Shown: in pieces, positions 103-18,016 of the stretch
Numbering within the stretch: the stretch's first letter is position 1
How the letters are laid out: every line of letters begins with the position of its first letter
Source: an uncultured Nitrososphaerota archaeon
Lineage (GTDB): Archaea; Thermoproteota; Nitrososphaeria; Nitrososphaerales; Gagatemarchaeaceae
Length of the DNA stretch: 64,000 nucleotides
Direction of reading: 5' to 3'
NCBI GenBank assembly: GCA_963718895.1
Contig: CAVRAG010000007.1
Span: 768,001-832,000, forward strand
Translations under genes and position numbers: made by a program
The notes under the pieces: generated by a model
Seen by the model: only the letters and a program-made list of their open reading frames with translations
Told to the model about the DNA's origin: nothing
Databases searched by the model: none

Positions 103-895
103 TTGTCGACCAGTGGTGAAGAAGGAGGTCACGAATCGGCGCCAAAGGCGGAGAGTGGTGCAGGGTCAGAGGGAGGAGGTCCCGCCGCTAGCACACCGAA
201 GGCCTCGACGGAGTCGAGTCCCAGTGCTCCATCGTCGGTTGAGACCGTGACCACGCCCAAAGGAGAGTACGATGTACAGCAGGAGTCTGTTCCGGCAAGA
301 ATCGAAGCAAATAGGGTGGATTTAGGGCATGAAACGCCTGCACCCGGTTTACAGGAATCGAATAGCATTCTCTCATCTGCGCCGAGTGATGGGAGTGTGG
401 AAGTAGGCGCGAGCAATGACAAGATTCTTAGCCATCAAGTACGGTGAAGTTCCGGCTGCGAAGTCAGGAGACAAACCAGAGACATTCTACTTATGGCAAG
501 GACACAGTGAGGACCCTCAAGACGCTCCAAGCCTCGAAGAAGCAAAAGAGGAGGTAGCATATGCGGGTGTGCCTTCTAGGCCCCTCGAAGAGGGCGAGCA
601 AACCAAGAAGATAGAAGAGGCCAAACTCAAGAATCCTGCCGATTACCTCGCCCCCCTCGAGCCTGTGGAGCCCGGAACATACGTCGATCTCGACAAATAC
701 CATTATCACATGAGAGAAAGGCACGAGGGGATTGGAATAGCCAAGCCCGGTCCCATCAATGCAACCATGGATGCCAATAGCGTGAGCTTTGAATCAGCGT
801 TGCCGCCATATGAAGAAATCCGTAAGCGCGATAACCCCGAGACCAAAGATTCTAATGAGCCTGGGGAGGAAGAGGAAGATTCGGGTCTGGGCTGA
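103..895 (+). CDS. Acidic, low-complexity hypothetical protein (one apparent frameshift near 420)
   Basis: ORFs 103..447 and 416..895 overlap in different frames; S/E/P/G-rich N-terminus and acidic tail (EPGEEEEDSGLG); TATA-like ggttataa near 44-51. Confidence 0.55.
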
Positions 896-1042
896 GATCT
901 CCAGTGTGATTCGGAGTGAGTCAAGCCTAGCTTGCCGTTTTGCCATCCTCCTCAGGTGCATGTCGGAGTAGAGGTCGATCTGTCTCACTTAGGACTAGCT
1001 AACTAGCTACAGGTTGTTCCCGTGAAGAGGGCGGGATGCAGT

Positions 1043-3667
1043 TCAGCGATTTTCCTCAAAGGAGGCGCTATAGGCTCGTTTGAAAAGCTCGATGCCTCTT
1101 GGCGTAGTATTCGTCTCCCTTAGGAGGTACATCTCCAATGCTAGCAGACTCATCTGCAGCGTTTCTTCTTGGTATCCCATCTCCTTCACAGCATCGACTA
1201 GCACGGATTGGAGTCCCTCTATCCTCTCCTGGTCGTTCTTCTTTTTCAGAGCATCATCTACTCCTTGCCTTACTTTGGGTTGCTTCAGAAGAGGCTCGAG
1301 GGCAATCATGCGCTCCCAGTCTTGGTTAGCTCGGAAGTCTTTCGCATGCGCATCGTAGAAGGCGCGCATCGTCTCTGAGAGCAGGGCTTCACTCTCTTGA
1401 GGGGTCGCACTCTCCACCATCGAGATGTCGATCAGGTAAGGGCCGTGAAAACCACCCATGGAGACCATCGCCTGACCCCTCGCCAGGTACATCAGATACT
1501 GGTTCTGCTCTTCCCCAAGTCCCATGGCCTCACTCATGACCTTTCTTTCGTTCCCATCGACCAGCCCGTGCGTGATCTTCAGGTTGGTGTTCTTGATGGC
1601 GTCAGGAGCGAGCTTCGTCGGCGTCTGGTCCACGATTATTATCCCGACTCCGAACGCCCTTGCTTCATCTATCATCTCGCTTAGGGTCTCGACTGCCTTC
1701 GCCTCGGAGTGGGCACCGGTGAAATCCCCGCCGGCGGCCACCTTTGATGTGGTCGAGAAAAGCCTGTGCGCCTCCTCGATCAGGATTACCTGTCCGAGCT
1801 GCGAACTCGCGCCTCGAGCCTCCAGATGCTCGTAGATCATGCCGAAGATCACGCCCATTAGGAAGCTCTTCTCCTCGTTGTCGGCGATCAAACCCAACTC
1901 CAGTATCGTGGGTTCCCTCAGCAGTTCCTCGATCTCGATGTGGCCTGAGAACATCAATCCCTTCCCGGCGATGAGTAGGCTGTGAATCCTCCTTCGCAAC
2001 GCTTCCCTGATCTCGCCGATCGTATCCTTCTTGTACTCCAGCCTATCCACCACTCGCATCGTCTCGACGTAGAAATCGTACATGTCCGGCGTCTCGCCAC
2101 GGGTCGATGTCGCCAGGCCCCATCCTCGTCTGGTGTACGTGTTGTAGAGAGCTTCTTCGAAGATCTGCGGCAGAGGTCCCCACATTGTGAAGCTCGCCTT
2201 CAGTACTGACTTGAGCATCTCTATGTGCCTGATCACGGGGACTCGATCTGGTACGGCAAAGGGGTTTATCCTAAATCTGTACCTCATTTCATCACCGAGG
2301 GTGAAGACCCGAAGCCCTGGGACGGCCTTCGAAAGTGAGCGATACTCTGACTTCACTGGCTCGATTATTATGAAGGGGGTGGGCTTCTCGCCCGAGCGGA
2401 TTTGGCTCAGAAGCCATTTCGCGGTCTCTGTCTTGCCCCTTCCTGGCATCCCAGAGATGAAGCAGTGCATGGTGAGGTTGTTCTTCCCAATCGTCAGCGA
2501 GTTGTTTGTCGTCGCGCCTCTGTCGAGAATGGTCCCGAGCCTTATCTCTGAGCCCGAGTCGCCGCTATCATCTCTCGCGGGAGGGTTGACGGCACACTTC
2601 ACCACTGGATATACATCAAAGCCTGGCATCTCCTCCTCTGGAAGGTTGACGAGGGCGGCGAGTTCCCGGGACGTCAGGGGCGTGCACAGGCTCGGGGTCT
2701 CGAATATCCCGATCTTTGGGGTATTTCTCACGTGCCAGAACTCCAGGTTCCTTGCTGCTGCCCGCAGGTAGCTTGCGTATTCGTCGGCCAATCCAGTAAT
2801 CCGGATAATCTCGGGCTGGGACGCTTCACCCACGAAGCTACTCTTGAGAATCGAGGCCAGTTTGGCATAACCGCCGGCGGAGCGGGCGCCGAAGTAGTAG
2901 GCGACATCCCACATCCCTATCGCTTTTCCTGACCGGATACGGTCCAAATCGGTTGTAAGTGCCTCTACGTAGTCCTTCAGGTATCTGTCGCTGACCTGTC
3001 GAGTCGCAGAGACCTTGGAATCATGATACGAGACGCTGGCGAATTCTTGGTTTCCCTCTATCTCGTTCATCAGTATCTCTTCCGTCCCAATCAAGTCAGT
3101 TCTTCGGAGCGGTCTTGCCAGGACTAGGGACCACCACTCTTCGTGCTCTCCGCCGCTCGCATCTGTCATGCAGCGCAGGACTTGGTTCAGCTGGCCAGAC
3201 TTGAGACTCGGTATCCCGGTCAGGAGCCCCCCGAACTTCGTGGACCCGGCGATTCTCATAAGGATTCTCGCCGCGGATGAAGTTGCTTCCTCTGAATCGT
3301 CCAAGACAAGTCCCGGACACTTGGCCCGGTAGAGCGCGACTACGGGCGCAAGCGTCCCGGCGTCTGGTGGGCCTCCGGCTCGGAGCTCCTTCTCATAGGA
3401 TTCGAGAAGAAGGTACATGTCGATTCGATTTTGCGTTCCACGAACGAGAATACCAAAGTCTAGATTCAGAGTCCATAGCGAGACCACTACGTCCTCCACA
3501 TTCGTTCCACCGGATGGAATCCGCTCGAACCTTGCGGCTCGATAGCCTGCGACCTGCGTGACTACCGTGTTCTGCAGGAGGTCCTGTAGCTTCTCGTGGT
3601 CCCCCGAGATGCCTTCGATCGAAGCGTTGCGAAGGATACCCAGCTCGTCCTGCGGAGGACTAGTCAA
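1043..3667 (-). CDS. Large HerA/FtsK-superfamily (DUF87-type) ATPase with long N-terminal extension
   Basis: 874 aa intact ORF; Walker A SGMPGRGKT, IIEPVKSEY, FRINPF, Walker B ILIEEAHRL, DQTPTKL...IKNTNLKITHGL. Confidence 0.9.
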   Translation of the reverse strand: MTSPPQDELGILRNASIEGISGDHEKLQDLLQNTVVTQVAGYRAARFERIPSGGTNVEDVVVSLWTLNLDFGILVRGTQNRIDMYLLLESYEKELRAGGPPDAGTLAPVVALYRAKCPGLVLDDSEEATSSAARILMRIAGSTKFGGLLTGIPSLKSGQLNQVLRCMTDASGGEHEEWWSLVLARPLRRTDLIGTEEILMNEIEGNQEFASVSYHDSKVSATRQVSDRYLKDYVEALTTDLDRIRSGKAIGMWDVAYYFGARSAGGYAKLASILKSSFVGEASQPEIIRITGLADEYASYLRAAARNLEFWHVRNTPKIGIFETPSLCTPLTSRELAALVNLPEEEMPGFDVYPVVKCAVNPPARDDSGDSGSEIRLGTILDRGATTNNSLTIGKNNLTMHCFISGMPGRGKTETAKWLLSQIRSGEKPTPFIIIEPVKSEYRSLSKAVPGLRVFTLGDEMRYRFRINPFAVPDRVPVIRHIEMLKSVLKASFTMWGPLPQIFEEALYNTYTRRGWGLATSTRGETPDMYDFYVETMRVVDRLEYKKDTIGEIREALRRRIHSLLIAGKGLMFSGHIEIEELLREPTILELGLIADNEEKSFLMGVIFGMIYEHLEARGASSQLGQVILIEEAHRLFSTTSKVAAGGDFTGAHSEAKAVETLSEMIDEARAFGVGIIIVDQTPTKLAPDAIKNTNLKITHGLVDGNERKVMSEAMGLGEEQNQYLMYLARGQAMVSMGGFHGPYLIDISMVESATPQESEALLSETMRAFYDAHAKDFRANQDWERMIALEPLLKQPKVRQGVDDALKKKNDQERIEGLQSVLVDAVKEMGYQEETLQMSLLALEMYLLRETNTTPRGIELFKRAYSASFEENR

Positions 3668-4505
3668 GTTCGACTTCGTCGTCCTTTAGCGGGGCCCGGG
3701 ATCTCGACCTGAAAAGGTCCTTCCCCAGTTCAGAAGCTCCGGTCTTGGCGACGGTCCTTTCGATCTCTCTCTTGGCACTATAGCTACTATCGGCCAAGTG
3801 ACCGACGACCAAAGGGCCTAGCATCTGGTTCAGCGTGTCTACCCTGCTTTCAAGACCCTTCATCATGGTCTTCTCGAAATCCAGTCGTCCCTCTTGATTC
3901 TTGCGGAAATCTTCCTGCAGTCCCCTGAAGGAGGATGTGACCTGTTCAGTACCGGCTATCACCTTGCCCATTCGCTCTTCCTTTATCGCGCCCAACCTCG
4001 CATTTCCGCCCTGAGCGATCGTGAACCCGGCTCGGACGCTCCCAATCGCTATCACTATTATCACCGCCAGTGAGATAATCGACGCGTACGAAGGAATGCT
4101 CTTTGACAGGATCGGGTCGACTACGAACGCGAGGAAGAGAATTACCAGAGCGGCAGTAGCGCCGATCTTGGCGAGGTCTATCAAGGTGGTGACATGGACG
4201 TGCCGCCTCATAGAGGGTTCGTGGTAGGTCGAGGAGATCTCTTCGAGGGATGTGTCGAGCAGATTCTCCATTTTCGACTGGACGCTATGAAGCCTCGTAG
4301 TCTCCTCGTCGAACTTGTCCTCCGCGCCGTCGATGAAGTTCTCCAGCTTCGCGCTCACGTGCGTGAGGTTACCAAAGACGGATTCCATTGCAGTTGGGAT
4401 GGTCTGTGAGGGGGTCAGAATCGTGGGGGGCGAGTGCGGTTGAACCCTGATCGGTAATTTCTCGTCGGAAATCGCCATCTCATCGTCGGGGTCGTCGGCA
4501 GGCAT
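3660..4505 (-). CDS. Two-TM membrane protein with coiled-coil segments, translationally coupled to the HerA ATPase
   Basis: 281 aa; hydrophobic IGATAALVILFLAFVV and IISLAVIIVIAIG; 8-nt overlap with the ATPase start. Confidence 0.8.
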   Translation of the reverse strand: MPADDPDDEMAISDEKLPIRVQPHSPPTILTPSQTIPTAMESVFGNLTHVSAKLENFIDGAEDKFDEETTRLHSVQSKMENLLDTSLEEISSTYHEPSMRRHVHVTTLIDLAKIGATAALVILFLAFVVDPILSKSIPSYASIISLAVIIVIAIGSVRAGFTIAQGGNARLGAIKEERMGKVIAGTEQVTSSFRGLQEDFRKNQEGRLDFEKTMMKGLESRVDTLNQMLGPLVVGHLADSSYSAKREIERTVAKTGASELGKDLFRSRSRAPLKDDEVELD

Positions 4506-4612
4506 AGCGTCAAAGTCCTCGTATCAACTACACCATTGAGTATTTATGACTTGTCAGCTGGAAGGAACCCTAAGGCTTTGGAGAGGAATTGAAAGACGGA
4601 GTGACAACGTAG

Positions 4613-5103
4613 TTGCCGAGTGATGGAAATGATATTCAAAGCGGCCAGTCGACACTCCAAGCTGCTCCTTCTCCCGCACAGACCAATCAACCAAAGAGCG
4701 CGGAATCTGGCGCCAACGGGTCAGCGGTTGACACCAAGCCGATGGGTGAAGTTGATTCTGTCCTGTCCGAGAATCCCAAAGTGAAATCCCTCAATGCAGA
4801 GGAATCAAACTCCATCAAGAATGCAATCTCCACAGGTTCCGGCACACAGATTCCGCAGATCGAGTAGCTTTCGAGTTCGTCTTAACCTTCCAAGTCGACA
4901 CCTCCAGCAGATGAGACCAACCTTGGCGACGCCAATTGTCATCGATGGACTCCACACCAAGGAACGGGCAGAGGGCTGTTGACAACTCTAAACTCGATTC
5001 CCTGAAGCCGCGCCTGAGATGGAAGGTGAGAAGGAAGAGAGGGGGATTGCAGGAGCGCAATGAAGACGAGCCATTCATCGGTGAAGACGAGGGCGAAGAG
5101 TAG
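4613..5103 (+). CDS. Acidic low-complexity hypothetical protein (frameshifted)
   Basis: ORF 4613..4867 plus a downstream frame ending ERNEDEPFIGEDEGEE*; shares ESNSI and the acidic tail with 103..895. Confidence 0.45.
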
Positions 5104-5282
5104 GATGATAGAGGTGACGAGGATTGATGGCGATCATCGGACTCGCGAACTCACGATAGCGGAATAGCAAGCCTCACAGGTGGAAAGAGCTCTCCCCGTG
5201 ATGTGGGCATCAGTCGGTCGGACCTCTTGGCGGGAAGCCTTTTAGATTCCGGAGCAGCCCGATTGAGACCGGCCAGGGTGGA

Positions 5283-7384
5283 TTGAAGGCGAATCGGGAA
5301 ATCATTTTGGGGGTAGACCTGGGAACCACAAGTTCCTGCGCAGCAATATTTGATTCTAAGGGCCTCCGAATAATCTCCACTCAGGGCATATCTGCTGAAG
5401 CGGAAAAGACATTCCCCTCGGTAGTGGCCGTCACCGGCGAGGGTCGCGTCGTGGTAGGAGAGAGGGCCAGGCTTCAGCTCTCGAATAACCATGAGAGCGC
5501 CGTGAGCGAGAACGAAGGGCAAGCTCGGCACGAACTATAGGGTGAGTTTGAATGGAAAGGAGTACACCGCTGAGCAGATAAGCGCCTTTATCATCCGGAG
5601 AATTCGGAACGAGACAGACAAGGTGCTCGGGTATCCCATCAGGAAGGTGGTCATGACCGTACCCTCGTACTTCAACTACAATCAAGATCGAGCTGTACGA
5701 GAGGCTGCAAATTTGGCAGGACTAGAGTTGGTCAGGCTGCTCCCTGAGTCCGTGGCAGCGGGCGCCGCCTGGTGCGTCGACAGGCCTGACTGGGAGGGAG
5801 AAAATGTTGGTGATCTCCCTTGGAGGGGGTGGTCACGATGTGGCAGTTATGAATACAGGAGGAGGGGTGATGCAAGTCCTCTCTACGATCGGGCAACCCG
5901 AGAGCGGAGGAGATAGCTTGGACTGGGCCATCGTCGAGCTCTTCCTGGAGGACATCAAGAACACGACGAGAACGAACCTTAGAGACGATCCAGCCTCCAT
6001 GGTCCGGTTGAAGCTCGCCGCGGAGAAGGCCAAGATGGAACTCTCGAATTTGGATTCGACGAATGTCACACTCCACTCTTCCAGCGCTTCCGAAATACTT
6101 AGATGGAACTACACGCTGACGAGGATGAAGCTAGAGGAGCTGGCGGCCCCTATGATATCGAAACTGGAGGAGTCGGTGGGCGACGCTCTCGAATCGGCAG
6201 AAGTCCCTGCGTCGGCGATTGACAGGCTGATCCTCGTCGGAGGAATGACGAGAATCCCGTTCGTCAGGACCGAATCGAGGGATTGGTCGGCAAGAGCGCA
6301 GAGGCGAAGGTCGACTTAATGTACGCACCGGCCCTCGGCGCGGCAATCGAAGCATCCGTTCTTGACGGCCAGCGGAAGGACTTCCTGATTCTTAGAACGA
6401 CGAGGCTCTCGCTCAGCGTCGACTAGGGGAGGGAAGTGTGACCAAAATCGTGAGCAAGAACACCACAATCCCCACCAAGCAGACGAGGATATTTTCGACG
6501 GCGGCGGACCTCCAGACGGCGGTCACGATTCGCGTGCTCCAAGGGGAGAGCGCGATGGCCTCCGACAACCTCCCTCCTAGGTACACTCGGGACTCGATGC
6601 AGTCCCCGCTCCCAAGGGGGTCCCTCAGATCGAGGTCGGCGTGGAGATAGATGCTTCCGAAATTCTGCGGGTCGTCGCCAAGGACCTCGGAACGGGAAAG
6701 AAGAAGGAGATGTCTCTCTCGAGATGGCACACGCTATCCGGTTCGACGAACACCGCACGCAGAGGCTCCATCGCTGAGACACCCGACGCGTCTCAGAGCG
6801 TCACTGCGACAGCCGGGACAGGCCCGGCCGCTGGTCGTGAGAGTGGCGGCCCTCCCGAGGCTGAAGAGCGGCGAATCTATCAGGAGAGGAGTGAGAAGGT
6901 GGTTGCATCAACACCTCTTCAGCACAACAGCAGGGAAGATTGGGAAAGGGTCTATCACCGCGACGTACGTCTGGCAGAAGGGGCAGCCGTGCGCAACGTC
7001 CTCGAAAAACTTCTTGCGGTGCGGGATGACCTCGATGCGGCGATAATGGCCATGGAAAAGCGAGGGGATGAGGGCCCCCTCCTTGAGGGTGTGAAAATGA
7101 CCCTCAGGAAGCTCGATTCGCTCATGGCGACAGAGGGCGTGAGGCCCATCGAGGCGGTCGGAAAGCTGTTCAACCCGCACCTGCACGAAGCAATAGATAG
7201 GGTTCAGGGTACGGGGGACAGAGACCTGGTGATTGAAGAGATTCGAAGGGGATTCATGTACGGGGACAAGGTCCTCAGACCGAGCTCTGTGAAGGTCGAG
7301 CTGGCGTCTCGGACGAACGACAATCGAACAACTGATTGGGCCGAGAGCCCGGGCCTTGTATTCCTATGGTGGGCGCGAGGTTAA
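5283..7384 (+). CDS. Atypical Hsp70 (DnaK) fused to GrpE (several apparent frameshifts)
   Basis: [65 protein letters not shown]; last ORF 6641..7384 joins [19 protein letters not shown] to GrpE motifs FNPHLHEAI and [18 protein letters not shown]. Confidence 0.85.
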
Positions 7385-7895
7385 TCGAAGATCACCTCGG
7401 TCAAGCCGCCACCTCGGCAGAAGCCAGAAGGCGACGGGAGGCAGACAACCAATCAAGGACGGCGGGGGGTTAAATAGAGTGACGGATGGTTTGTGTGCCC
7501 GACTCCGCGAAAATGACTCTCTCGCCCTGAACGGGAGACGATACACAGGAATTACCTGAGCCGCAAAAACGTGGTCACGAGCGCAAGGGTCTTCCACGGC
7601 GAGGCGGCCAACGGGTCGAAGAGGAAGACATCATCTTTGACTTTCCAGCGAATGCCGTCCTGGTGAAATCCCGGGAGGGCGAAACAGCGCATGTCTGCCG
7701 ACGAGGCGGACGAACAGGCGAAATCGCGCAAAGCGGACTCAGGCACCCGACCACGGCTTCTCCGAAACCAGACCCACGCTGCAGGCTCAGGTGGCCGTCT
7801 GCCCCATCTGGGATGCGTTTCAGCGTCGTTTCCCGATTTGTGGCGTGCGTGGGACCTGGCGGGAAGGAAGCTGCGGTCGAGCACAGGAGCTGAAA

Positions 7896-9146
7896 ATGCC
7901 GGATGCAAACCTACGAAAACCGGACGAAGTGGGGAAGACCGACCTTGAGCAGTACGACGTCGAGCAGGCCATCGGCATCGTCCGCGGGCTGGGAGAGGGG
8001 CTAATCGAGGCGACGGCGCACTCGAAGCACCACTTCCGCAGGGAGTGGCTCGACCAGCTCGTAGAACGGTACCGGAGACAGCCCGGCAAGCCCGTCATCC
8101 ATCTGGACGACCTCGGCGACGAAGTAATACCCACGCTCTCGGGCGGCGCTCGCGAGTTCCTCAGGCCCTACTGGGAAGGACTCGTGAAGGAGCACGGCTC
8201 GGAGTGGGGTGCCCAGAAGTTCAGGTGCGTCTGGGACATCTTCTCGGCGAGAGGGAACGTCTCGAGGTGGGCGAAGCTCGGGAACTGGAGGAGGTTCTCC
8301 GGGCTGAGGGGGCTACACGTCGACGACCTTGAGCCCTATGTCGTAGCACTGCGGGCGTCGAGCGTTGGGACCAGCAGGGTGATACTGAACCCCAAGCTGC
8401 CTTTCAACCTCGCGACGCCTGCGGGAGCGAAGATCATAGGGTACAGGGGGGATGCTGCATACAGGACATCAGCATTCCACAACCTCGAGCCGGTGCTTCA
8501 CGAGGACTACAAGCAGGCGATCACGGAGACGATAGGCGGGAATCCGTTCACGACCACCTCGAGAGAGGATGGTTGTAACAGGACGAACGTCGGAGTCTTC
8601 GTGACAATGCTGCAGTCTATCGCAGGCATCGACAACACACAGAAACAGAAGAGAGCATGCAACCCATTCCCGAGCTGGTTCTTCACCATCCCAAGCGATG
8701 TGATGGCGGCCGGTTTGAGGGCAATCTGGGACTCTGAGGGCTCGCCGGGCAAAGAACTTAGACTGGGACAGACCGTCGCAGTCGAGAACGCTAGTCCCAA
8801 GTTGAGCGCTCTGGGAATCGGAATCAAGAGACCCTTCAGCTGGCTGGAAGAATCAGCACAGGAGACGATGGGAGCAAAACCACCGATGCTTCTCACATCG
8901 ACAGCGCTGCTCTTATACACCTTCGGCATAGATTCGTATGTTGGACCGCAGAAGACTTGGAGAAGCAAGGACCAGCTCACAAGCGTGTTCTGGGTCCTCT
9001 CCATCTACAGAAAGCGGAACATGGAACTCTTCCGACAACACATCGACTTCCTGTCCACAGACAAGCAACAGAGACTACGAGACGCCATCGAGAACACAGA
9101 TCCGTCTTCCCCTTCCTCCTCTTTTTTTTCTCCTAGGGTGACTTGA
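7896..9146 (+). CDS. Free-standing LAGLIDADG-like homing-endonuclease-domain protein
   Basis: NPKLPFNL..AKIIGYRGDA (degenerate motif 1), AGLRAIWDSEGS (motif 2), LLYTFGIDS, WVLSIY..NMELFRQHIDFLSTDKQQRL; probable ATG at 7896. Confidence 0.7.
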   Translation: MPDANLRKPDEVGKTDLEQYDVEQAIGIVRGLGEGLIEATAHSKHHFRREWLDQLVERYRRQPGKPVIHLDDLGDEVIPTLSGGAREFLRPYWEGLVKEHGSEWGAQKFRCVWDIFSARGNVSRWAKLGNWRRFSGLRGLHVDDLEPYVVALRASSVGTSRVILNPKLPFNLATPAGAKIIGYRGDAAYRTSAFHNLEPVLHEDYKQAITETIGGNPFTTTSREDGCNRTNVGVFVTMLQSIAGIDNTQKQKRACNPFPSWFFTIPSDVMAAGLRAIWDSEGSPGKELRLGQTVAVENASPKLSALGIGIKRPFSWLEESAQETMGAKPPMLLTSTALLLYTFGIDSYVGPQKTWRSKDQLTSVFWVLSIYRKRNMELFRQHIDFLSTDKQQRLRDAIENTDPSSPSSSFFSPRVT

Positions 9147-9427
9147 TGAAATACAAAGTGTACGCTTCGATCAGTCACGTCCCCGAAGAACGCTCGGTGA
9201 AAGCGGACTTGATTCTCGTAACCAACGGTGAGGGTAAGCTTGTTGACTACTTGCCGGGCCCGGCTACCATAGACGGGTACGAAGGGAGGTTTACTAAGAA
9301 CAAGGCTAAAGAAAGCGCGAAAGACTGGGTCAACGAAAGCCTCGAAATCGACACGAAGATAGATGACGTTCGACTCGTGCCCTATCCGCGGTTGAGCAAA
9401 ATGCTCTTCAAGCTTCAGAACAAGTGA
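9143..9427 (+). CDS. Small hypothetical protein
   Basis: 94 aa ORF overlapping the upstream stop; a paralogous N-terminus at 11874 supports coding status. Confidence 0.7.
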   Translation: MMKYKVYASISHVPEERSVKADLILVTNGEGKLVDYLPGPATIDGYEGRFTKNKAKESAKDWVNESLEIDTKIDDVRLVPYPRLSKMLFKLQNK

Positions 9428-9540
9428 TTGCTTTCTCTTGTTCGACGTTGCCGGCTAAATTCGCGGGAGCTGGAGGAGCGGAAATCGAGGGCAAGGAAGG
9501 ACGGGAAGACGCCGTTGGAGCAGCGCCAGTGTAGTTGTGA

Positions 9541-10170
9541 CTACACCGCTGTTCCGACTGTGGGCACGATCTGCGGGAGGCTCTTCTTCTTGAGGAAGAG
9601 GAGGCCAACCGCACCTAGCACCACAGCCAGGCCCGTTCCGACAACCGCGAACTGGGGCACGGTCGCTGTGACTGTGAGGGAAGCTACCTCAGTGTAGGAG
9701 CCACCACACTTCACCTCTGTACCGGTCTGAGAGCACGCGTAGATGGTCAGCGTCTCCTGGCCGTTTGTGGGAGTTACTGTGGTTGGCGCAGTCAGCGACA
9801 GTGTCATAGTCGAGGGCGACCCGTACGATGCTCCCTCACAGGTTCCTGATGGGCACGTGCTCACAGTCCCTGATGCGGGAGTGAAGGTCCAGCTCCATCC
9901 GTTGTCGGTGCCTGCGTTTGAGCTGCATCCGCTGCCTACGGGGCAGACGTAGTAGTGCATCGTCGTGCCGGAAGGCGCGTTGCTTGCATAGAACTCGAAG
10001 GTCGCGGACCCTGTGGATCCAGGTCCGGTCAGCGGTATTGTGTTACCCGACGCGCAACCGCTTACGCATTGCAAAGATCCAGAATACGGTGTTGCCATTG
10101 CGGTTGGCAGCATCATGAGAGCGAACATTGCTCCAACAGACGCCAGTACAGCGAGCTTCCTCAGTTGCAT
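9541..10170 (-). CDS. Secreted Cys/Thr/Ser-rich surface protein with PEF-CTERM-like anchor
   Basis: Signal peptide MQLRKLAVLASVGAMFALMMLPTAMA; C-terminal VPQF + TM + KKK. Confidence 0.8.
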   Translation of the reverse strand: MQLRKLAVLASVGAMFALMMLPTAMATPYSGSLQCVSGCASGNTIPLTGPGSTGSATFEFYASNAPSGTTMHYYVCPVGSGCSSNAGTDNGWSWTFTPASGTVSTCPSGTCEGASYGSPSTMTLSLTAPTTVTPTNGQETLTIYACSQTGTEVKCGGSYTEVASLTVTATVPQFAVVGTGLAVVLGAVGLLFLKKKSLPQIVPTVGTAV

Positions 10171-10309
10171 ATTCTTCTCGTGGTTTGGGTCGGTTATAAG
10201 GCCTAAGAAGCCGAAATCAATGGACGTGTATTTGAAATTCATGTCTAATTTGGTGGAGAATTCGCAAAAAACTTGGGTGTTTTCTGAGGGCTGCGGGGCA
10301 CGTAGTAGG

Positions 10310-10903
10310 TCAGGGCAGGAGTCCCGGGATGTTGGTCGAGGTTACTTGCAGGTCGATCGTCGGAAAGTTGCCGAGTGTGAGGTTGAGGGCGACCGGGGGC
10401 AATCCGAGCCGGTAGAAGTAAGCAGTTGTGAGCAGCTGGGCATCCGCGGTCTCGAAGGAGTCGGCCGTCACCGACATCACCTTCCCCTGGACAACTTGAG
10501 TAGTCGAGTATTGACCCGCGATGGCGTCTTTTCCAGTGAGAAAGAAGGTCGAACCATGGTTCAATCCCGGAGTGACCCAATCTACTCGGTGGTTGCTGAT
10601 TGGCGCTCCATTGCCGACGGTCACGTTGTCCATGGATAGGACCTCGGCCTTGGTCGAGTTCATGGCGAGGACGCGGATTGCGTACGTCATCGTGACAGAG
10701 GAGCCATCGACGCTTGTTGTCCCTGAATATACCACTTCCGCACCCGGGACCACCCAGGACGGGAGCCCCTTGGTCTCTCCGGTCGCAAATCCCGAAGTCG
10801 GGGCCATGGCAAGCAGGAAGATCGCGGCCAAGACCGCTGAGACGCCGACGATGAGAATGATGAGGCGCGTCCTGCGGCTTGGGCGCGAGTGTTTCGTCCT
10901 CAT
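10310..10903 (-). CDS. N-terminally anchored extracellular protein
   Basis: Basic N-terminus followed by TM LIILIVGVSAVLAAIFLLAM; PSWVVPGAEVVYSG starts a beta-rich body; probable start 10903. Confidence 0.7.
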   Translation of the reverse strand: MRTKHSRPSRRTRLIILIVGVSAVLAAIFLLAMAPTSGFATGETKGLPSWVVPGAEVVYSGTTSVDGSSVTMTYAIRVLAMNSTKAEVLSMDNVTVGNGAPISNHRVDWVTPGLNHGSTFFLTGKDAIAGQYSTTQVVQGKVMSVTADSFETADAQLLTTAYFYRLGLPPVALNLTLGNFPTIDLQVTSTNIPGLLP

Positions 10904-11101
10904 GAGCTGAGAGAGCGGGCGCTCTAATAACGACCACGGAGTGGGATTCTGGTTACGGCAGGGTTGCCGCTTAAATCGGCCGATGCAGTATGACGGCATG
11001 TCCACGGGAGTCGCAAAGTTAGCCTACGAGGATGTTCCTGCCTCGGAAATCACAAGGCAGACGCACTCGGTACCGGTTCAGACCTCGTTAGGTGGAAACC
11101 A

Positions 11102-11518
11102 ATGACAGGTGACGACGAGATCCCCCGGTTGAGGAGGACCTACAGGTACGAAGTCAGAGTGACTGGGGTAGGGAGGGAAGTCTCAATCCTGTTTACCAAC
11201 GAAATCGCGACAGACGACTCTACGTTGACTCTCGATCCCGTAGAGATAGTCAATAACCACAGGCTGTACACACTGAAAGACAAACGCGCATCTATCCGTT
11301 GGCCAGGGTGGTCGAGATCAAGCTCCGCGGGAACAACCCGGAACGCAGTCAAGCCACAGCGAGCGCGGAAGACGCAGAGGAGACCGCTGAGGCAACAGCC
11401 ATCGCGAACTCGTGGTGCGGTCGATGATGTCGAGGCGGTCCCAAGAGGTCTTCGTGGCGACCCTGCCGTCTGCGGGTTCCTGAGGCGACCCCCCCGGAGG
11501 AACAGAAATGGTAATTGA
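11102..11518 (+). CDS. Hypothetical protein (3' half probably frameshifted)
   Basis: Preceded by aggtgg; first ~65 aa look globular, the rest looks off-frame. Confidence 0.4.
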   Translation: MTGDDEIPRLRRTYRYEVRVTGVGREVSILFTNEIATDDSTLTLDPVEIVNNHRLYTLKDKRASIRWPGWSRSSSAGTTRNAVKPQRARKTQRRPLRQQPSRTRGAVDDVEAVPRGLRGDPAVCGFLRRPPRRNRNGN

Positions 11519-11821
11519 CCTCTTCATGGCTCTTCTGAACGCCACCCTAGGGTTCGCCGCGGGGTTTTCGCAGGCCTCGTCGCCTTTGAGCTGGCCAAGC
11601 ACAGCGGCGGGAGGCTGAGCGAGAGGTTCGCGATGCTCGCAGCCCTCCTCGGCTTGCTAGTCGGGACCGGCTTCGGCGTTGCCCTCTTCGGTGGTCCACC
11701 AAGCCCGACTCCGGTCTGGTTGGCGGTTTCTGGCGCCGACGGGTCGCCGCTTCTGGGGTACGGATCGCAGTGGTACACCTACGTCGCCATCCGGAAGCAC
11801 CCCGAGCGATACACAGACTAG
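11508..11821 (+). CDS. Small membrane protein (frameshifted)
   Basis: MVIDLFMALLNATLGFAAGF continues in another frame as AGLVAFELAK...FAMLAALLGLLVGTGFGVALFGG. Confidence 0.5.
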
Positions 11822-11873
11822 CGTGGACCAGGGCAACTGAGAGGCGGCATAACTTGGGTGTGAGAGGGACGAC

Positions 11874-11980
11874 ATGAAGGCGAATCACGGGTACAAAGTG
11901 TATGCCTCAATCCGTCACGTTCCGGAAGCGTCCGCGAAGGCGAACCTGATTCTTGTCACGGACAGCGGGGGCACTTCAAA
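11874..11980 (+). pseudogene. Truncated paralog of 9143..9427
   Basis: YKVYASIRHVPEASAKANLILVTDSGG versus YKVYASISHVPEERSVKADLILVTNGEG; similarity stops where the low-GC block begins. Confidence 0.7.
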
Positions 11981-11991
11981 TGGCGTTGCCT

Positions 11992-12978
11992 CTATGATTC
12001 CCGCGATAGCTTGTACATCGAGTCGACCAACTCATACATCCCCTCTGTCTTCCGAATCAAGCGCATGTTGATGAGCGAGTCAATTGACCTTTGCAGGCTT
12101 TTGTCATCCGGCGTTGATCCATAGTAAGCACTGCTAAGGGCCTTCAGTTCTTTCCAAGTACATCGCTTTTCGAATGATGAAATGGCTTTCATGATTGAAA
12201 GTTCGAGTGGACCGAGACTCTTCAGCTCGTCGTTTAGGACGTGCTTAGCGTTGTCCTTGACTTCGAAAAGGGATTTCTCGTGGCTGATTCCCTGGCTCCT
12301 TTTCGCGCCGTAGAAGGATAACCATCCCGGAATGCCGCTGAATGTCTCTGTAGCTTCTGTGATTTCCTGCTCCGAAGATTTGACTTTGCATATGCGAAAC
12401 CCCTTCTGGAGGAAATCTCTGCTTGTGGAGGAATTGAAGGGTTCCAGTTCTATCTGTTGAGTTGGTCTACCAAGCATTGATGGATCGTTGGACAGTCGCT
12501 TAATCATGCCGGTTGCTGATCCCGAGAATAAGAACTTCGCTTTGGATTCATTGTACGCTACTGAAAGCAGTTTTGGAAAGGTTGGATCGTTGATGTTCTG
12601 GATTTCGTCCAGAGCAATTGTGACTTCTGGGAGATTCCTGAGGAATTGTTCGAGTGTTCTTACCGGTTTCTTCTCGAATTCAGCTTTGACTAGTTTCAGG
12701 TCTAATGTGATTTTGGCTTTTACCTTTGCACTTACCAGGTCTATTATCCGGTTGCCAAGATCGGGGATTGCTAGGCAGGTTGAACTGTCGATGAATACGC
12801 CGTTTCTTTCCTTGGTTATCGTCTTTAGGATCGATGTCTTTCCGATTCTTTTCGGTCCTATTACGAGTACCCAGAAGCCGGCATCTAGTTGTTTTGTGAT
12901 GTTCGTTAGCTCTGCGTCTCGCCCATACATGAGATTCCTGTTTTCCTTTGGGCGAGTGTCAAAGTATGGACATGGCAA
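11992..12978 (-). CDS. Archaeal AAA+/P-loop ATPase with C-terminal winged helix
   Basis: YFDTRPK..LMYGRDAEL, Walker A GPKRIGKTS, Walker B IALDEIQ, FSGIPGWL, wHTH-like LQRSIDSLINMRLIRK..GMYELVD; probable TTG start 12978. Confidence 0.9.
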   Translation of the reverse strand: MPCPYFDTRPKENRNLMYGRDAELTNITKQLDAGFWVLVIGPKRIGKTSILKTITKERNGVFIDSSTCLAIPDLGNRIIDLVSAKVKAKITLDLKLVKAEFEKKPVRTLEQFLRNLPEVTIALDEIQNINDPTFPKLLSVAYNESKAKFLFSGSATGMIKRLSNDPSMLGRPTQQIELEPFNSSTSRDFLQKGFRICKVKSSEQEITEATETFSGIPGWLSFYGAKRSQGISHEKSLFEVKDNAKHVLNDELKSLGPLELSIMKAISSFEKRCTWKELKALSSAYYGSTPDDKSLQRSIDSLINMRLIRKTEGMYELVDSMYKLSRES

Positions 12979-12983
12979 AGATA

Positions 12984-13127
12984 ACCCTCGCCAGTAGCTG
13001 GCGTGGGTAGATGAGAAAAGAGTTTTGATTGGATACAAGAATGGAATCTAGGAATGTCAGAATGTAGGGGACTTTGCAGTAGTTGGTACTTGTAGTAGTT
13101 ACCCTCGCCAGTAGCTGGCGTGGGTAG
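12984..13127. repeat. Two identical 27-bp palindromic direct repeats (12984..13010, 13101..13127)
   Basis: ACCCTCGCCAGTAGCTGGCGTGGGTAG twice, separated by 90 bp; dyad ACCC-T-CGCCAG-TAG-CTGGCG-T-GGGT. Confidence 0.9.
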
Positions 13128-13325
13128 GGGAATTGGCATATTGAATTTGAAGAGTCGTATGAGGTCCAGGAGTGAAAAAGAATGGATCGCAATCCGAGCG
13201 ATTTCCAGAACATGACAGGAATTGAACTTGGTGTTTCCGTGGTTCCGACTCTGGGATGAAATGACTTGACCTCAGTGATAAGATTGACGATGGCGATGGT
13301 GGACGATTTGAAACCTGGTCATTGC

Positions 13326-13358
13326 AAAAATTGTGATTTATAGTTGGCACTATAAACC
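13326..13358 (-). terminator. Hairpin plus U-tract downstream of the candidate ncRNA
   Basis: GGUUUAUAGU-GCCA-ACUAUAAAUC followed by ACAAUUUUU on the minus strand. Confidence 0.5.
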
Positions 13359-13359
13359 G

Positions 13360-13563
13360 GGGCCACCCCGCTCTGCACAACCCTGGCTTTACGCCTCCGG
13401 GCATGTCAAGCATCCACGAGCCTCCATGCCAACACGATTAACGCTCCCAGCATGGAAGACATGAGCCGGAACCTCACATCCTTCCTTCACTACCGGAACC
13501 GTAGCGGCCTTGTCGAACCACGGATGTTGCTAAACAGCTCATGTGGGGATAGGGGTAACTATC
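13360..13563 (-). ncRNA. Candidate structured non-coding RNA, family not recognised
   Basis: Several nested stems with G-U pairs valid only on the minus strand; TTTATAAC box (13594..13587) about 24 nt upstream of the closing stem; no convincing ORF. Confidence 0.5.
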
Positions 13564-13779
13564 GAGATTCGATCCACCAAGGGCATGTTATAAACTATAC
13601 CGATGGTATCCAATCATCAAAACTCCGAAGTCATGCAAATCAGGTAATCTAGGTAGCCATAACACTTGGATCTCCAGCTCCAGTAGGCTGGGTTAACGAG
13701 TAGTCGCCGGCCTAGATGGGAAGAATGCGAAGGAGGTCAGACATGAATACGCGGTTAGTGGGAGCTAATCGGCTTTCAG

Positions 13780-16700
13780 TTAGACGTCCTTGGTCTTCAG
13801 ACTTCGCTCGATTAGTTCTTGTTCGTCTTCTCCGACGTCATATAGTTTGTAAACTGCTTCATCCAACTCATTCTCAATCACACTGATTCCACTCTTCAAG
13901 TCCCTAAGTTCAGCCTGATTATCCGTCAAGTATCTCTCCCAATCGTCCTGTTCGTCGAGTTTCATCCTCCGCCTTGCTGCTCCTTCAATCTCACGGCGGA
14001 CATCTTTGAACAAGAGTCCAGTTATATCCTCCAAGTTCCTAGGAATTCCTATTCCGAAATTATCAGCAATCCGACGGAGAATTCTGTCTTTCACCCCATA
14101 ATACTCTGGATATAGTCTTGAAAGTCTCTCCGCCAGTCCTGCAATATTCGATTGTTCAGTCATCGAAATGTTCTTCACAGGGAGGCTTCGAATCTCAGCA
14201 AGTGTGGTCTGTCTAAAATCATCTTTCAAAGCGATGGATGATTTCTTGGTGTACAGAAACGAGAACAACTTAGAATTCAGTAACAGCGAGAATGTAGAAT
14301 GGGTTGAACTTGCCCGAGTAGTCCTGTGTGATTACGAACGGGTTGAAATCCTTATTCGTTATTATTCCTGAGTCTTCATGGAAAGCCATAAGGCGATTCT
14401 GGCGATTCACAATTCTTCTTACCAGGATTTTCGGTTGTGTGTACAAGTGCTGAATACTCTTTGCCTTACGAAAGTCAATGAAGGCGGAAGACTTGATGAA
14501 GAAACGGTATCTATTGGCGTCGGCCTCGAGTAAGAAACGGGAATGGTCTTCCGACATATTAGGACTTTGATACAGGAAACTTACTCGTGACGATTCCTTG
14601 ACAGGAATCAGTGAGAGGAGGACCAAGTTCTATACTTCCCTTCCGAACTTCTTCCAAGATTTCGTATGTGCTATCGTTCGCGAAGACCTTGAGGTTTGGT
14701 TCAAGAAGAACTCTCCTCGTCTTCACGCATTCAGAATTCTCAACCTCGATAGCAGTGATTTTCTCGTCCTTCTCGTATTCGTGTGCAAGGAATGATTCAC
14801 TCTCCTTATTGTTCCTAAATACGACTATTCCAGTATCTACGTATGCATCCGGGAAGACGTCAAAGGGCAGGTTCACCAAGTTTCGCAAGCTTACTTTCTT
14901 GTCCACGAATAGCATCTTGCGAAAGGTGAAGTAGTTGTCCCCAGTCTGCCATGTCAGAGGCATGATGAATCCAATGAAGCCTCCTTCCTTTATTAGGTCG
15001 AGAGCTTTTTCAACAAAAATGACCGGAGGTATCGTACTTTCTGAAAATGCCATCGTAGTTAGCCACGTAGTGGCTGCTTCGTCGTCCTCCATTTCCTCCA
15101 GCGGAATGTATGGTGGATTCGAAATGACAACATCAAAGCGACCTCCAATCTCCTTGAACTCATTCTCCCCAGTCGAACCCTTTTCCATGAGTAATCTCTT
15201 TGTCGAGGATGATACTATTTCCAATCCGGATGTTCTGAGACAGGTCGATAAGTTTTCGATTAGTACTTGCTATCTTCAAGAACAAACTCAGTTTTGTAAT
15301 CTCGACCGATTCTTCGTTCACATCCACCCCAAAAATATTGTTTTCAACGATTCTCCTCGCCTCCTCCTCCTCCTCCCACTTCTTGAGCGAGTAGAATTAG
15401 GTCGGAGGGGAGTTCTTTCTTGTTCCTGTCTTCACAAGAGTATATTCGCCTTTCAATTCCTTGAATGCTCTAATCTCTTTGTGAACGTCCAAGAGTATGT
15501 CCACCGCCTTGATTAGGAACGCTCCACTCCCACAAGCTAATCTACAATATTAAGGGCCTTGAATCTCTTCTCCAGCGAATTAATATCGTCAGAATACTCT
15601 TCAATCAGCTCAGAAATCGTAGTTGTCCCGTTCCTTGAAAGGGCAGGTATTATCGTATTCCTGCATATGTAATCGGTCACAAAGTCTTCGGTATAGTAGA
15701 TTCCTCCCTTCTCCTCCTTGAAAACCTCACTTCACCTTGAATCTCCTCCAAATCCGTAAGTGATTGTTCGAAGATGTGCCCCAGTATCTTCACATCAACT
15801 TCAGACTGAAAATCAAATGATGACAAGAATAGGAGATTGCCGATGATGGGAATCAGTCTACTCCTGAATCGCTTCATTACTAACTGGGAAATCTCATCTA
15901 ACTTCATTTCATTCTTCAGATTGGAGTGTTGGAGAATATCTCTGAAATAGGAATTGCTCCTGATATCCCTAAAAAAGACGTTCGGAGGAATCTTCTCTCC
16001 AAACAAGCCACCGTTGAATCCGAATATCTCGATTGGAGACTTGGAACCCTTGTCCAACCTCTCGAACAAGTTCGAAATCGTATCAGATGCGTATAGCGAG
16101 TATTCTGACACTATAGCGGGATTCAGACTCTCAAGAATTGACTCTGAGAAGATTCTGCGTTTGATATTGCCTGTCCCTTGAGCGAAGAACATGAAGTTCA
16201 TTCGGTTGAGGAAGAGCTGGGCGTAGTGTAACGATTCTTGGTGACTTATTTTACCATTCTCTTCGAACTCCCGGAGCAACATTAGCCTCGTTTCATGATA
16301 AAGTTTGTAGAATTCGCCCGTGAAGAGTCTCTCTTCTATTGAAGACTCGTAAAGTAACTTCGGTATGAAGTCCCGATCTATTATGCTTTCCTTTGAGAAG
16401 ATTGAAATGAACTCCCTCAGTTTCTCGTCAATTCCTCTGGTGCTCAGGAAGTCAAAGAGGTGATCACACAATACCCCTTGGCCTTGTCAATTAGGACAAA
16501 GTACTGGTAGTTTGTGGCTATACCATAATCGAAGTTGCCACTTCCCATGTAGTTCCAAGTTTGCGTTATGGGAGTCTTGTGTTCGGGCTTCTCTCTACTT
16601 TGCTCAGCGAATACGTGAGCAGTGGCCGTTCCTTTAGCCTCGATGCAGACCCCTCCTTCTCCTGAGGGGTTCCTGAAACTAAACTCTACGTTGCCTCCTC

Positions 16701-16895
16701 AAAATCCAAGTCCTCGGTCACTGAATATCCAAGAACACCTTGAAGAATCAGTACAGCGAACTTCAGGTAGTTTCTCTCCTCCCGCTCAATTTCGCCGGAT
16801 CTAAGGAGATATATCCACTTCTGAGCATTGAACTTTTGTTTTAGAGTTGGCTTGATGGCTGAGCTCATCCTCGCAATAGTTCGAGGGTTGAACAA
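13780..16895 (-). CDS. Type IIG (Eco57I/TaqI-C-like) restriction-modification enzyme (many apparent frameshifts)
   Basis: Fragments in order: CIEAKG nuclease, FNGGLF, VKILGHIFEQS, YTEDFVTDYI, ACGSGAFL, IFGVDVN, VISNPPY, FPDAYVDT, KILVRRI specificity region, LDEAVYKLY C-terminus. Confidence 0.9.
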
Positions 16896-16927
16896 GGCCT
16901 CGTCGCTAAGGGTCGAATGCCATCAGG

Positions 16928-17900
16928 CTACAGGAAGTCCCCGATATTTTGAGCTTTCTTCGCTAGCTCAAGCTTCGTGTATACAGGACTCCGGGGCACG
17001 ACTCCCCTTCTTCCCTCCTCGGCCGTCAGTTTAAGCGGCTTGGGTAGTTGTTCTCTTGTATTGAGGATAATCTGGAATTTCCCAGAGTCCTTATAGGGCC
17101 TTATCGTCTTAACGGTGCCTATCCATCGGATTGAGGAAATGGGCAGCTTGATAGTACATGGCCACATACTTGATTTGTGGGATGATAGAGGGAGACATTA
17201 AAATACATACCACATGTTCTCGCCTAGGAATGTTTCTTCAATCCCTTTTTGTTAGCCGGACAAACTATGGTATCGACATCAGCGATATTCCTCACCCCCT
17301 TTGACACTGAAGCCTTGATTTCTTCCTGGAACTCCGAGAACTGATAAGCGACCACACCTTCTTAAGTGAAGTGAATTTCCTCAGCTCAATAATGTCCGGT
17401 TGAGTCGCAAGTTGGCGGAGCACAAAATTCAGGTCCTCAGAGATCTTTTCGTCTATTATGACTATGAACCCATAGTCATTATCAAACACAACGCCATCCC
17501 AGAGATATGAGAAGTTAGGGTAGTGACCTTGCATTAAGGCGCTTACTGCTTCTGAGATTTTTGTATTATTCTTGATTTCTTCTAACAAGACACTCTTAAG
17601 TCGTCGAGACCCGGTGTTGAAGGAGCTTACGAGAATCGCCATAGTTGCAAGCCGATGTCCTCATCAACATCATCAGGATGAGATTTCGTTTTCTATCACA
17701 TAGAGCTTTGGACGTCCGCTTGAGAAACTGATTACATAACCGTCTGGAATCGATGCAATATCACCCTTCTGGGAGTTCACTTTCCTCTTTATGTCAAGGT
17801 AGACCGAATCCTCACCAAAGATGAGGTGACTATTCTCGACCACTACTCTCTCAAGCTCTTCCTCCTTAGAATTCTGCGCTTTGAAATAGTCTTCCTTCAA
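16928..17900 (-). CDS. PD-(D/E)XK-like nuclease with C-terminal putative reader domain (frameshifted)
   Basis: EEELE..IPDGY..LYVIENE N-terminus; C-terminus DTIVCPA..EETFLGENMWY..IKYVAMY..PISSIRWIG..PYKDSGKF..PRSPVYT. Confidence 0.65.
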
Positions 17901-18016
17901 CGAGGAGCCGGCTCATGTCTCTCGTGCGGCAGAGTAGAGACGACCAAGATAAGGCCAGTTGTTCGTAAAACGTTATAACCATCGCGCCTCGGACGGGTTC
18001 GAAGCAGGAATAGGTT

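Follow-up and report, generated by a model that had tools for sequence, protein, structure and literature searches.

Hsp70, its J-protein and its nucleotide-exchange factor are nearly always separate proteins, and their ratio tunes the chaperone cycle. The canonical complex of DnaK with GrpE, built from two proteins, has been solved as 1DKG, 4ANI and 8GB3, and its human counterpart, mortalin with GrpEL1, as 9BLS. Here we describe a gene of an uncultured Nitrososphaerota archaeon (family Gagatemarchaeaceae, assembly GCA_963718895.1) in which an Hsp70 without its alpha-helical lid is joined in frame to GrpE, beside a separate canonical operon. It lies at 5283-7335 on the plus strand of a stretch of 64,000 nucleotides, hereafter the window, which is positions 768,001 to 832,000 of contig CAVRAG010000007.1 (contig C7, where the gene is at 773,283-775,335); its extent was drawn from tblastn with the canonical DnaK and GrpE of the same genome and from an alignment in which frame breaks were bridged with X. 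The two families are those of the canonical complex, with the stalk, bundle and beta domain of GrpE and the ATPase and beta domains of Hsp70, but here they form one polypeptide, DnaK then GrpE, whereas the genome's canonical operon runs grpE-dnaK-dnaJ. The ratio of the two partners would also be fixed at 2:2, as against the single Hsp70 per GrpE dimer (1:2 Hsp70:GrpE) that section 6 of PMC11685456 gives for the solved complexes. This is a new domain arrangement of two well-known families, found in two lineages so far; the observation is real and rare, and what we say of function is inferred.

Engineered lid-less truncations of DnaK and Hsc70 likewise end just past the beta domain; these are laboratory constructs without GrpE, and they keep ATP-controlled substrate release, with faster kinetics. 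In eukaryotic Hsp110 and Grp170 an Hsp70-like body and an exchange function also share one chain, an analogy only: in Hsp110 the Hsp70-like body is itself the exchange factor and there is no GrpE domain, whereas the archaeal gene carries a classical GrpE. Operons of the order dnaK-grpE-dnaJ, as in two Ktedonobacterales loci (L157 and L177) and the high-GC sources of seven ENA proteins discussed below, have grpE directly downstream of dnaK on the same strand; in L157 and L177 the genes are separate and the DnaK, of 595 aa, has its own stop. The GAP1-N2 GTPase conflict systems of actinobacteria and firmicutes are described, in the relevant portion of Kaur et al. 2020 (PMC7159879), as having an extra, non-housekeeping Hsp70 and GrpE, some of the Hsp70s being truncated, but there the genes are separate and their neighbours code for a GAP1-N2 GTPase and for an FNIII protein fused to DnaJ or TPR. 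The 18 open reading frames (ORFs) scanned at 416-16471 of the window gave no Pfam match to a GTPase, FNIII, TPR or DnaJ, although small or frame-broken neighbours could be missed. A full-text literature search found no description of a natural DnaK-GrpE fusion, supplementary domain-architecture tables, which might list such proteins, being outside its reach; the phrase matches that it gave for a DnaK- or Hsp70-GrpE fusion are, by title and abstract, engineered fusions. The main text of a 2026 survey of DnaK-DnaJ-GrpE in archaea does not contain the words fusion, paralog, truncated or lid.

A preliminary description of the window had pointed to an uninterrupted ORF at 6641-7384 that begins with the end of the Hsp70 beta domain and goes on through a linker of about 50 aa into GrpE. 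The ORF is there as described (plus strand, 247 aa, GTG start), its residues 1 to ~33 align by tblastn with the canonical DnaK at 456-488, where the beta substrate-binding domain has its final strands, and its residues 96-219 match the GrpE family of Pfam (PF01025) with 101.1 bits (cut-off 25.8, E 6.6e-29, profile positions 39-163 of 165). It is, for all that, merely the 3' tail of a longer gene, whose DnaK body upstream had gone unmentioned, and the end assigned to it at 7384 is not the real one: the last ~23 codons, after 7314, are out of frame, and short reads and a second assembly place the stop, a TGA, at 7333-7335. Counted from a TTG start at 5283 the gene has ~683 codons once seven one-base insertions or deletions (indels) are allowed for. 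The DnaK body (5283-6640) is split across all three frames in at least six pieces, the frame changing between 5283-5510, 5515-5796, 5801 to ~6256, 6256-6423, ~6426-6570, a few codons at ~6574-6588, and ~6596 onward. Five HSP70 pieces and one GrpE exceed the Pfam cut-offs, with all four of the upstream pieces scanned among those that pass, and a second scan gives six HSP70 matches at the locus. When its breaks are bridged with X, the gene aligns colinearly first with the canonical DnaK of the genome (residues 1-488, 49% identity, 8 gaps) and then with the canonical GrpE (residues 73-220, 40% identity).

All the parts of the gene lie on the plus strand. The Hsp70 nucleotide-binding (ATPase) domain takes up 5283-6378 in four frame pieces (PF00012 positions 1-63, 103-183 and 189-345, above cut-off, and 341-434 in the second scan) and has the motifs DLGTT, GGGxHD and GGMTRIP. 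The interdomain linker and the beta substrate-binding domain follow at 6379-6739 (PF00012 positions 400-446 and 444-506, thus 400-506 together), where NTTIPTK, FSTAAD and VTIxVLQGE are retained. The homology to DnaK then stops at ...TLS, which corresponds to residue 488 of the canonical DnaK (628 aa) and is the point at which helix A of the lid would start. In the lid's place is a linker rich in T, A, G, S and E (6740-6856), predicted to be disordered (AlphaFold2 pLDDT < 50 over ORF residues 24-68). The linker first reported thus exists; its length is ~46 residues if counted to the GrpE stalk and ~70 if counted to the start of the Pfam match. With only ~46 codons between the two domains, a lid of ~110-130 residues cannot fit in any frame, and a gap-free short-read contig backs the sequence just after the beta domain, so the absence of the lid, already claimed in the preliminary description, stands. 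Beyond the linker, 6857-7132 encodes the stalk helix of GrpE together with its two four-helix-bundle helices, which a homodimer model predicts to form the dimer interface, and 7139-7303 encodes the C-terminal beta domain (strands at ORF residues 167-221 in the AlphaFold2 model), the part of GrpE that touches the Hsp70 ATPase domain in solved complexes. We therefore read 5283-7335 as probably encoding one intact protein of ~683 aa, made up of ATPase domain, linker, beta domain, disordered tether and complete GrpE, with the frame breaks as errors of assembly. Directly 3' of the corrected stop is a terminator-like hairpin with a T-rich tail (7336-7352, plus strand), a pattern match only, in a region where the count of such sites is not above that in shuffles; it would fall within the ORF as deposited.

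The interval 6700-6900, which includes the junction and for which the preliminary description proposed a check of reads, is covered by short reads to 6759 and again from 6788, on both sides without indels. One short-read contig of 151 bases (6609-6759) crosses from the beta domain into the linker with 0 gaps, and four further ones cover 6788-7109, also with 0 gaps. Across the 28 bases in between (6760-6787) a second assembly carries identical residues: its protein P0001 (97% identical), from a 45.5-kb ENA contig, has the beta domain, the linker and the GrpE stalk in one frame. No stop is seen between the domains. The core of our reading, an in-frame union of GrpE with an Hsp70 that has no lid, in a genome that also has a separate canonical operon, holds.

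All seven disruptions of the deposited frame are shifts of +1 or -1, and the pieces in the correct frame (~676 codons) are without any stop codon. One base is too many at the first break (~5508, where frame +3 gives way to +1 between 5510 and 5515), at the second (5796, where a short-read contig of run X1 disagrees with the window), and at the fifth and sixth (~6571 and ~6593, across both of which P0001 reads straight); one base is missing at the third (~6258, frame +2 to +1 at ~6256) and at the fourth (6423, from three-frame translation and tblastn); and one G is missing at the seventh (7314), where short reads and the second assembly both disagree with the window. The sole in-frame TAG, at 6424-6426, is a product of the shift at the fourth break and no nonsense mutation. 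The short-read contig of run X1 over 5674-5856 (depth 4) omits one base at 5796, exactly where the second piece changes to the third, and dropping that base gives a single open frame of 249 codons (5509-6256). Another contig of the same run (7101-7470, depth 2.8) adds a G after 7314, which leads to the TGA at 7333-7335; the corrected C-terminus equals that of P0002, a second protein of the second assembly, ending in ...ASRTERQSNN. P0001 in turn has a shift of its own at ~6990 (window numbering), which two gap-free short-read contigs (6947-7097 and 6959-7109) do not back. Shifts that differ between two assemblies are the pattern expected of random indel errors. Short-read cover is nil at 5200-5549, 5857-6608 and 6760-6787 and, in some runs, over most of 6942-7100, and the reads bear on the second and seventh breaks only; an exact look-up of the other frame pieces for second-assembly versions found one piece, from this assembly only. 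Together the independent data cover four of the seven sites, and at all four they contradict the window.

The same kind of damage is seen in a gene that can hardly be a relic. The EF-2 gene, 11 kb away at ~18010-20208 on the plus strand, is spread over three frames, where at least 10 changes of frame can be counted by eye and the correct frames are free of nonsense codons; when the 730-aa EF-2 that is intact in a relative (G007) serves as the tblastn query, the gene comes out in four pieces in three frames. It is the genome's only EFG_IV match and so cannot be a spare dead copy, and its frame changes are read as clustered one-base assembly errors in a conserved gene. Elsewhere on the contig, outside the window, a class I aminoacyl-tRNA synthetase (G000 contig C7:10009-11902, minus strand) lies in two frames (profile positions 2-182 and 185-409), three others being whole, a further sign of sporadic assembly indels. 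The genome is metagenome-assembled, in 11 contigs, with an estimated completeness of 80.5% and an estimated contamination of 5.4%. Given such patchy damage in conserved genes, the seven breaks in the DnaK-GrpE gene are taken to be of the same kind and are read as one-base errors of assembly, not mutations. By the Nei-Gojobori method the fused gene compared with the genome's own dnaK has dN 0.44 and dS 1.49, a ratio of ~0.3 that is rough, since dS is nearly saturated; for the canonical copies of G000 and G015 the ratio is 0.08.

The GrpE half is modelled with confidence. AlphaFold2, run on the ORF with an alignment of 63 sequences, gives a mean pLDDT of 79.4, with 96-98 across ORF residues 101-220; helices are predicted at residues 73-140 and 146-164 (pLDDT 82-98) and the beta domain at 167-221 (pLDDT 97-98), that is, the long stalk helix, the two bundle helices and the C-terminal beta domain that define the GrpE fold. 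Past residue 222 the pLDDT drops to 52-72, as expected if the tail is out of frame. Foldseek returns 12 matches at E <= 0.001, and each of the 11 that are listed is a chain of GrpE or GrpEL1, with target TM-scores of up to 0.76; all six phmmer matches among solved structures are GrpE. Columns G150, G174, F177, P179, G204, R213 and V219 are invariant in the 63 aligned GrpE sequences, the ORF itself being the first row and thus keeping them by definition. The preliminary description supposed that the fusion would dimerise as GrpE does, and here a prediction in silico agrees: two copies of residues 60-232 score 0.72 as a homodimer, against 0.00 for the best of three controls, a mark that 20 of 30 proteins solved as one-chain pairs reach, as does 1 of 23 solved as single chains. 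The runs have at least 47% of the contacts in common, the pLDDT of the partner is at least 77 and the confident interface residues are 105-165. GrpE dimers have already been solved, so this result may be the model's memory, and it shows likeness to them rather than binding. With that proviso, the GrpE part is predicted to homodimerise through the stalk and the four-helix bundle.

A second protein of the same architecture, P0118, was found on an unrelated 1,236-bp JGI metagenome contig that cuts off its 5' end. Its 353 aa start late in the ATPase domain and run on through the beta domain and a linker to a GrpE that is complete; its homology to DnaK ends at the same ...xLS position as that of the window gene, and the two are 36% identical over 368 alignment columns. 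P0118 is the strongest independent support for the fusion. A search for proteins that combine HSP70 and GrpE domains, which the preliminary description had also suggested, is misleading when taken by itself. Among the 120 proteins listed in a near-length search with P0118, eight carry both Pfam domains: P0118 and seven from ENA contigs of 11-231 kb (P0154, P0158, P0159, P0166, P0203, P0214 and P0239). In these seven the lid helices are retained, an Arg/Gly-rich stretch of wrong-frame type bridges the lost stop codon, and GrpE follows from its own start; several of them also begin or end in such a stretch. We take each to be a read-through from dnaK into grpE, produced by indel-prone assembly of high-GC DNA, and set them aside. 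None of this applies to the window gene, which has no lid and whose junction finds support both in short reads and in the second assembly. Searches of metagenome proteins for the HSP70+GrpE architecture are dominated by read-through artefacts, which are a trap for them.

Wider searches show how rare the arrangement is. Of the 400 genomes of the phylum searched with P0118, none gives a match that covers both halves among the 150 matches listed, beyond which there were 99 more. Scans of metagenome and genome contigs with an alignment of the ORF and P0118 gave 160 loci, essentially ordinary grpE and no fusion. In six of the 160 a DnaK match lies at most 700 bases upstream of grpE on the same strand (L043, L074, L086, L157, L177 and L192). 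Two of these, L157 and L177, were ruled out as fusions, dnaK and grpE being separate genes there, and the other four as lid-less, their DnaK match reaching residue 583-628 of 628. In the two Ktedonobacterales metagenome-assembled genomes (L157:197-2569 and L177:976-4013, both dnaK-grpE-dnaJ) the 595-aa DnaK matches the canonical protein only to residue 483, and by tblastn its last ~110 residues are unlike the usual lid. A 508-aa open frame around grpE in G004 was likewise rejected, as merely an upstream non-coding read-through of an ordinary grpE-dnaK pair. No fused relatives of greater length were found among 6,150 candidates for the 247-aa ORF or 1,048 for residues 160-353 of P0118, which is weak evidence.

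Both halves of the gene come from genes of the archaeon's own family. In a tree of 164 columns and 46 rows, which takes in all 22 loci of relatives and 22 of the 131 others, the canonical DnaK of the genome comes out as sister of the DnaK part (99/93), and with 487 columns (the 22 relatives and 13 of 128 others) the DnaK part falls in a starred set of four rows with the genome's own copy and the two nearest relatives of that copy. A tree of 22 relatives and 26 other loci puts the GrpE part among the GrpE proteins of the family (93/91), where it shares a polytomy with P0118. When the window gene and P0118 are held together the approximately unbiased (AU) test gives p values of 0.25 (DnaK part) and 0.29 (GrpE part), so that their monophyly is neither shown nor rejected. 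The sister position of the DnaK part would imply a very recent duplication, but synonymous divergence does not fit it, being ~1.2 on the fused branch and ~0.3 on the canonical one, and no date is relied on; with this misfit and the long branches, the conclusion is limited to the derivation of both halves from the genes of the archaeal family. Within that limit the comparisons show a fast-evolving extra copy, from the same archaeal lineage's own dnaK and grpE, with the canonical operon untouched. Gene conversion, or polishing with reads from the canonical genes, was ruled out, DNA identity to the canonical locus being 67-69% where the two are most alike. The order and the junction are just what one would obtain if grpE-dnaK-dnaJ had been copied in tandem and a deletion had then run from the first residues of the lid into the grpE that followed.

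The canonical grpE (a 225-codon open frame), dnaK (628 aa) and dnaJ (368 aa) stand in that order on contig C8, in keeping with the operon expected elsewhere in the genome by the preliminary description, which had also seen no dnaJ near the fusion. Tblastn with the genome's own DnaJ finds no match in the window, and the two J-domain (PF00226) matches of the genome are both on contig C8, one at dnaJ and one 34 kb from it. The genome's small-subunit (SSU) rRNA scores 1447 bits with the archaeal model and 1088 with the bacterial one, which marks the organism as an archaeon. No operon partner is evident among the neighbours of the fused gene. Divergent from it, at 1043-4505 on the minus strand, are two ORFs that overlap by 8 bases, one for an intact 874-aa HerA/DUF87-like ATPase and one of 281 aa that has a hydrophobic stretch and matches nothing in Pfam. 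Directly 3' of the fused gene is a 451-aa ORF (7791-9146, plus strand) with a weak match to LAGLIDADG_3 (E 0.0017, below cut-off), and nearby are two secreted-looking ORFs, with no Pfam match, and an ATPase_2/STAND-like gene at 11992-13038. A low-GC stretch runs from 12000 to 18000 (43-47%, against ~60% around it); it holds, chiefly at 13780-16471, consecutive minus-strand ORFs with Eco57I/N6_Mtase and MmeI helicase-spacer matches, which look like one MmeI-like restriction-modification gene in pieces. The stretch may have been acquired as an island, and either decay or assembly errors of the kind described above could have broken it.

Several features of the data weigh against an intact, working fusion. 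Conserved motifs are changed: canonical INEPTAA is LLPESVAA here, the interdomain linker reads DFLILR in place of canonical DILLLD, and the stalk motif of GrpE differs from canonical LQADFENYRKR, changes that fit relaxed constraint. The end branch of the fused copy is very long (0.9-2.2 changes per column, the median being ~0.02-0.04) and its composition odd. A second GrpE match is absent from all 40 relatives and from the 24 other genomes of the family (f1), so that 1 of the 25 family genomes searched has the gene, and no J-domain gene lies near it. Three of the breaks (~5508, ~6258 and 6423) are outside the independent data and the 28 linker bases outside the short-read cover; the short-read contigs have depths of only 2-4, with one contig per difference, and all runs come from one study, possibly on the assembly's source sample. 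P0118 is a single short contig with a cut 5' end, and its single-sequence fold, with a mean pLDDT of 36, was not used. Much of this is what would be seen if an operon duplication and a deletion had left a dnaK-grpE relic, a pseudogene in which some of the frameshifts are real and from which no functional protein is made; seven frame breaks stand within 2 kb of the deposited sequence, and the restriction-modification pieces at 13780-16471 are another broken-looking gene close by. We consider such decay rather unlikely, however, as four of the seven breaks are absent from independent data and the shifts of the two assemblies differ; the essential, single-copy EF-2 gene in the same window is damaged alike; ~676 correct-frame codons hold 0 nonsense codons despite ~50% protein divergence; dN/dS is ~0.3, and the GrpE part still scores 101 bits and models at pLDDT 96-98; and the distant relative P0118 retains the same open architecture. 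The changed motifs in the ATPase domain, linker and stalk may, on comparison of sequences, reflect an altered allosteric cycle or relaxed constraint, either one.

The opposite kind of error, in which a fusion has been made out of two genes, is far less probable. An undetected indel in the 28 uncovered linker bases could hide the stop of a lid-less dnaK followed by a short grpE, the stretch of assembly does contain indels and has a stop in frame 0 at ~6768, and seven of the eight HSP70+GrpE proteins retrieved are artefacts of that sort. This we regard as very improbable: the reads set the frame to 6759 and from 6788, and it is the same on both sides; the second assembly has identical residues across the gap, and P0118 is uninterrupted; a separate GrpE would lose most of its stalk, there being no start codon in its frame from 6770 to ~6895; and the gene, unlike the artefacts, has neither a lid nor a wrong-frame Arg/Gly-rich stretch. 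Still more remote is a chimeric misassembly of an Hsp70 fragment with a grpE from another place or organism, which the metagenomic origin of the genome, its estimated contamination of 5.4% and the local quality problems might suggest; one short-read contig of 151 bases by itself joins the beta domain to the linker, an independent 45.5-kb contig has the same junction, GC content is even across the locus, and a DNA identity of only 67-69% to the canonical locus means that it was not built from the canonical genes. A different matter is an intact fusion that acts mainly in trans, its GrpE dimer docking on the canonical DnaK while the lid-less Hsp70 half holds clients, as a prokaryotic counterpart of Hsp110-type exchange factors, themselves relatives of Hsp70. 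The canonical DnaK is present, the GrpE part has stayed whole and goes back to the GrpE of the same lineage, and the ATPase half has altered motifs; since a GrpE dimer binds a single Hsp70 in the solved complexes as section 6 of PMC11685456 presents them, a free partner site is conceivable. Being tethered, however, the ATPase domain of the fusion itself should be present at a much higher local concentration, and the canonical GrpE is still there to serve the canonical DnaK, and action in trans seems to us an unlikely main role, if a somewhat better prospect than decay.

For an intact fusion acting on itself, which is the reading that we prefer, the following course may be pictured. The GrpE part would dimerise through its stalk and bundle as free GrpE does, giving a homodimer that bears two Hsp70 units, in effect a dimeric Hsp70 with a tethered exchange factor, as the preliminary description had proposed. 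In the solved complex the N-terminal stalk of the second GrpE protomer lies against the beta substrate-binding domain, and by analogy a tether that leaves the C-terminus of that domain would start near the stalk, so the geometry seems compatible. Of the two tethered ATPase domains, only one at any moment would then be held open by the beta domain of GrpE; nucleotide would be exchanged rapidly within the molecule, with ADP release no longer limiting, and the absence of the lid would give fast on- and off-rates for substrate. The outcome would be a rapidly cycling Hsp70 of low dwell time, for which a J-protein from elsewhere would still be required, two J-domain genes being present on contig C8. 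Carried to its full extent, this picture is of a single-chain Hsp70 machine: a homodimer whose GrpE stalk stands in structurally for the lid on the beta domain and whose tethered ATPase domains alternate on one asymmetric GrpE dimer, a half-of-sites, self-exchanging archaeal analogue of Hsp110 that arose from a duplicated operon by a lid-to-grpE deletion and is now a fast-evolving accessory gene in a variable region of the genome, with P0118 as a second member. We offer that whole picture tentatively, as a possibility that is less likely than not.

The locus is also a reminder that frame breaks clustered in the conserved genes of long contigs can conceal real genes. If our reading of the fusion is true, the protein would be a compact construct for structural work and would test the geometry of the recent full-length Hsp70-GrpE structures, in which the stalk lies beside the substrate-binding domain. 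It would also be an experiment of evolution's own, a chaperone cycle in which ADP release has become intramolecular and the lid has been removed.

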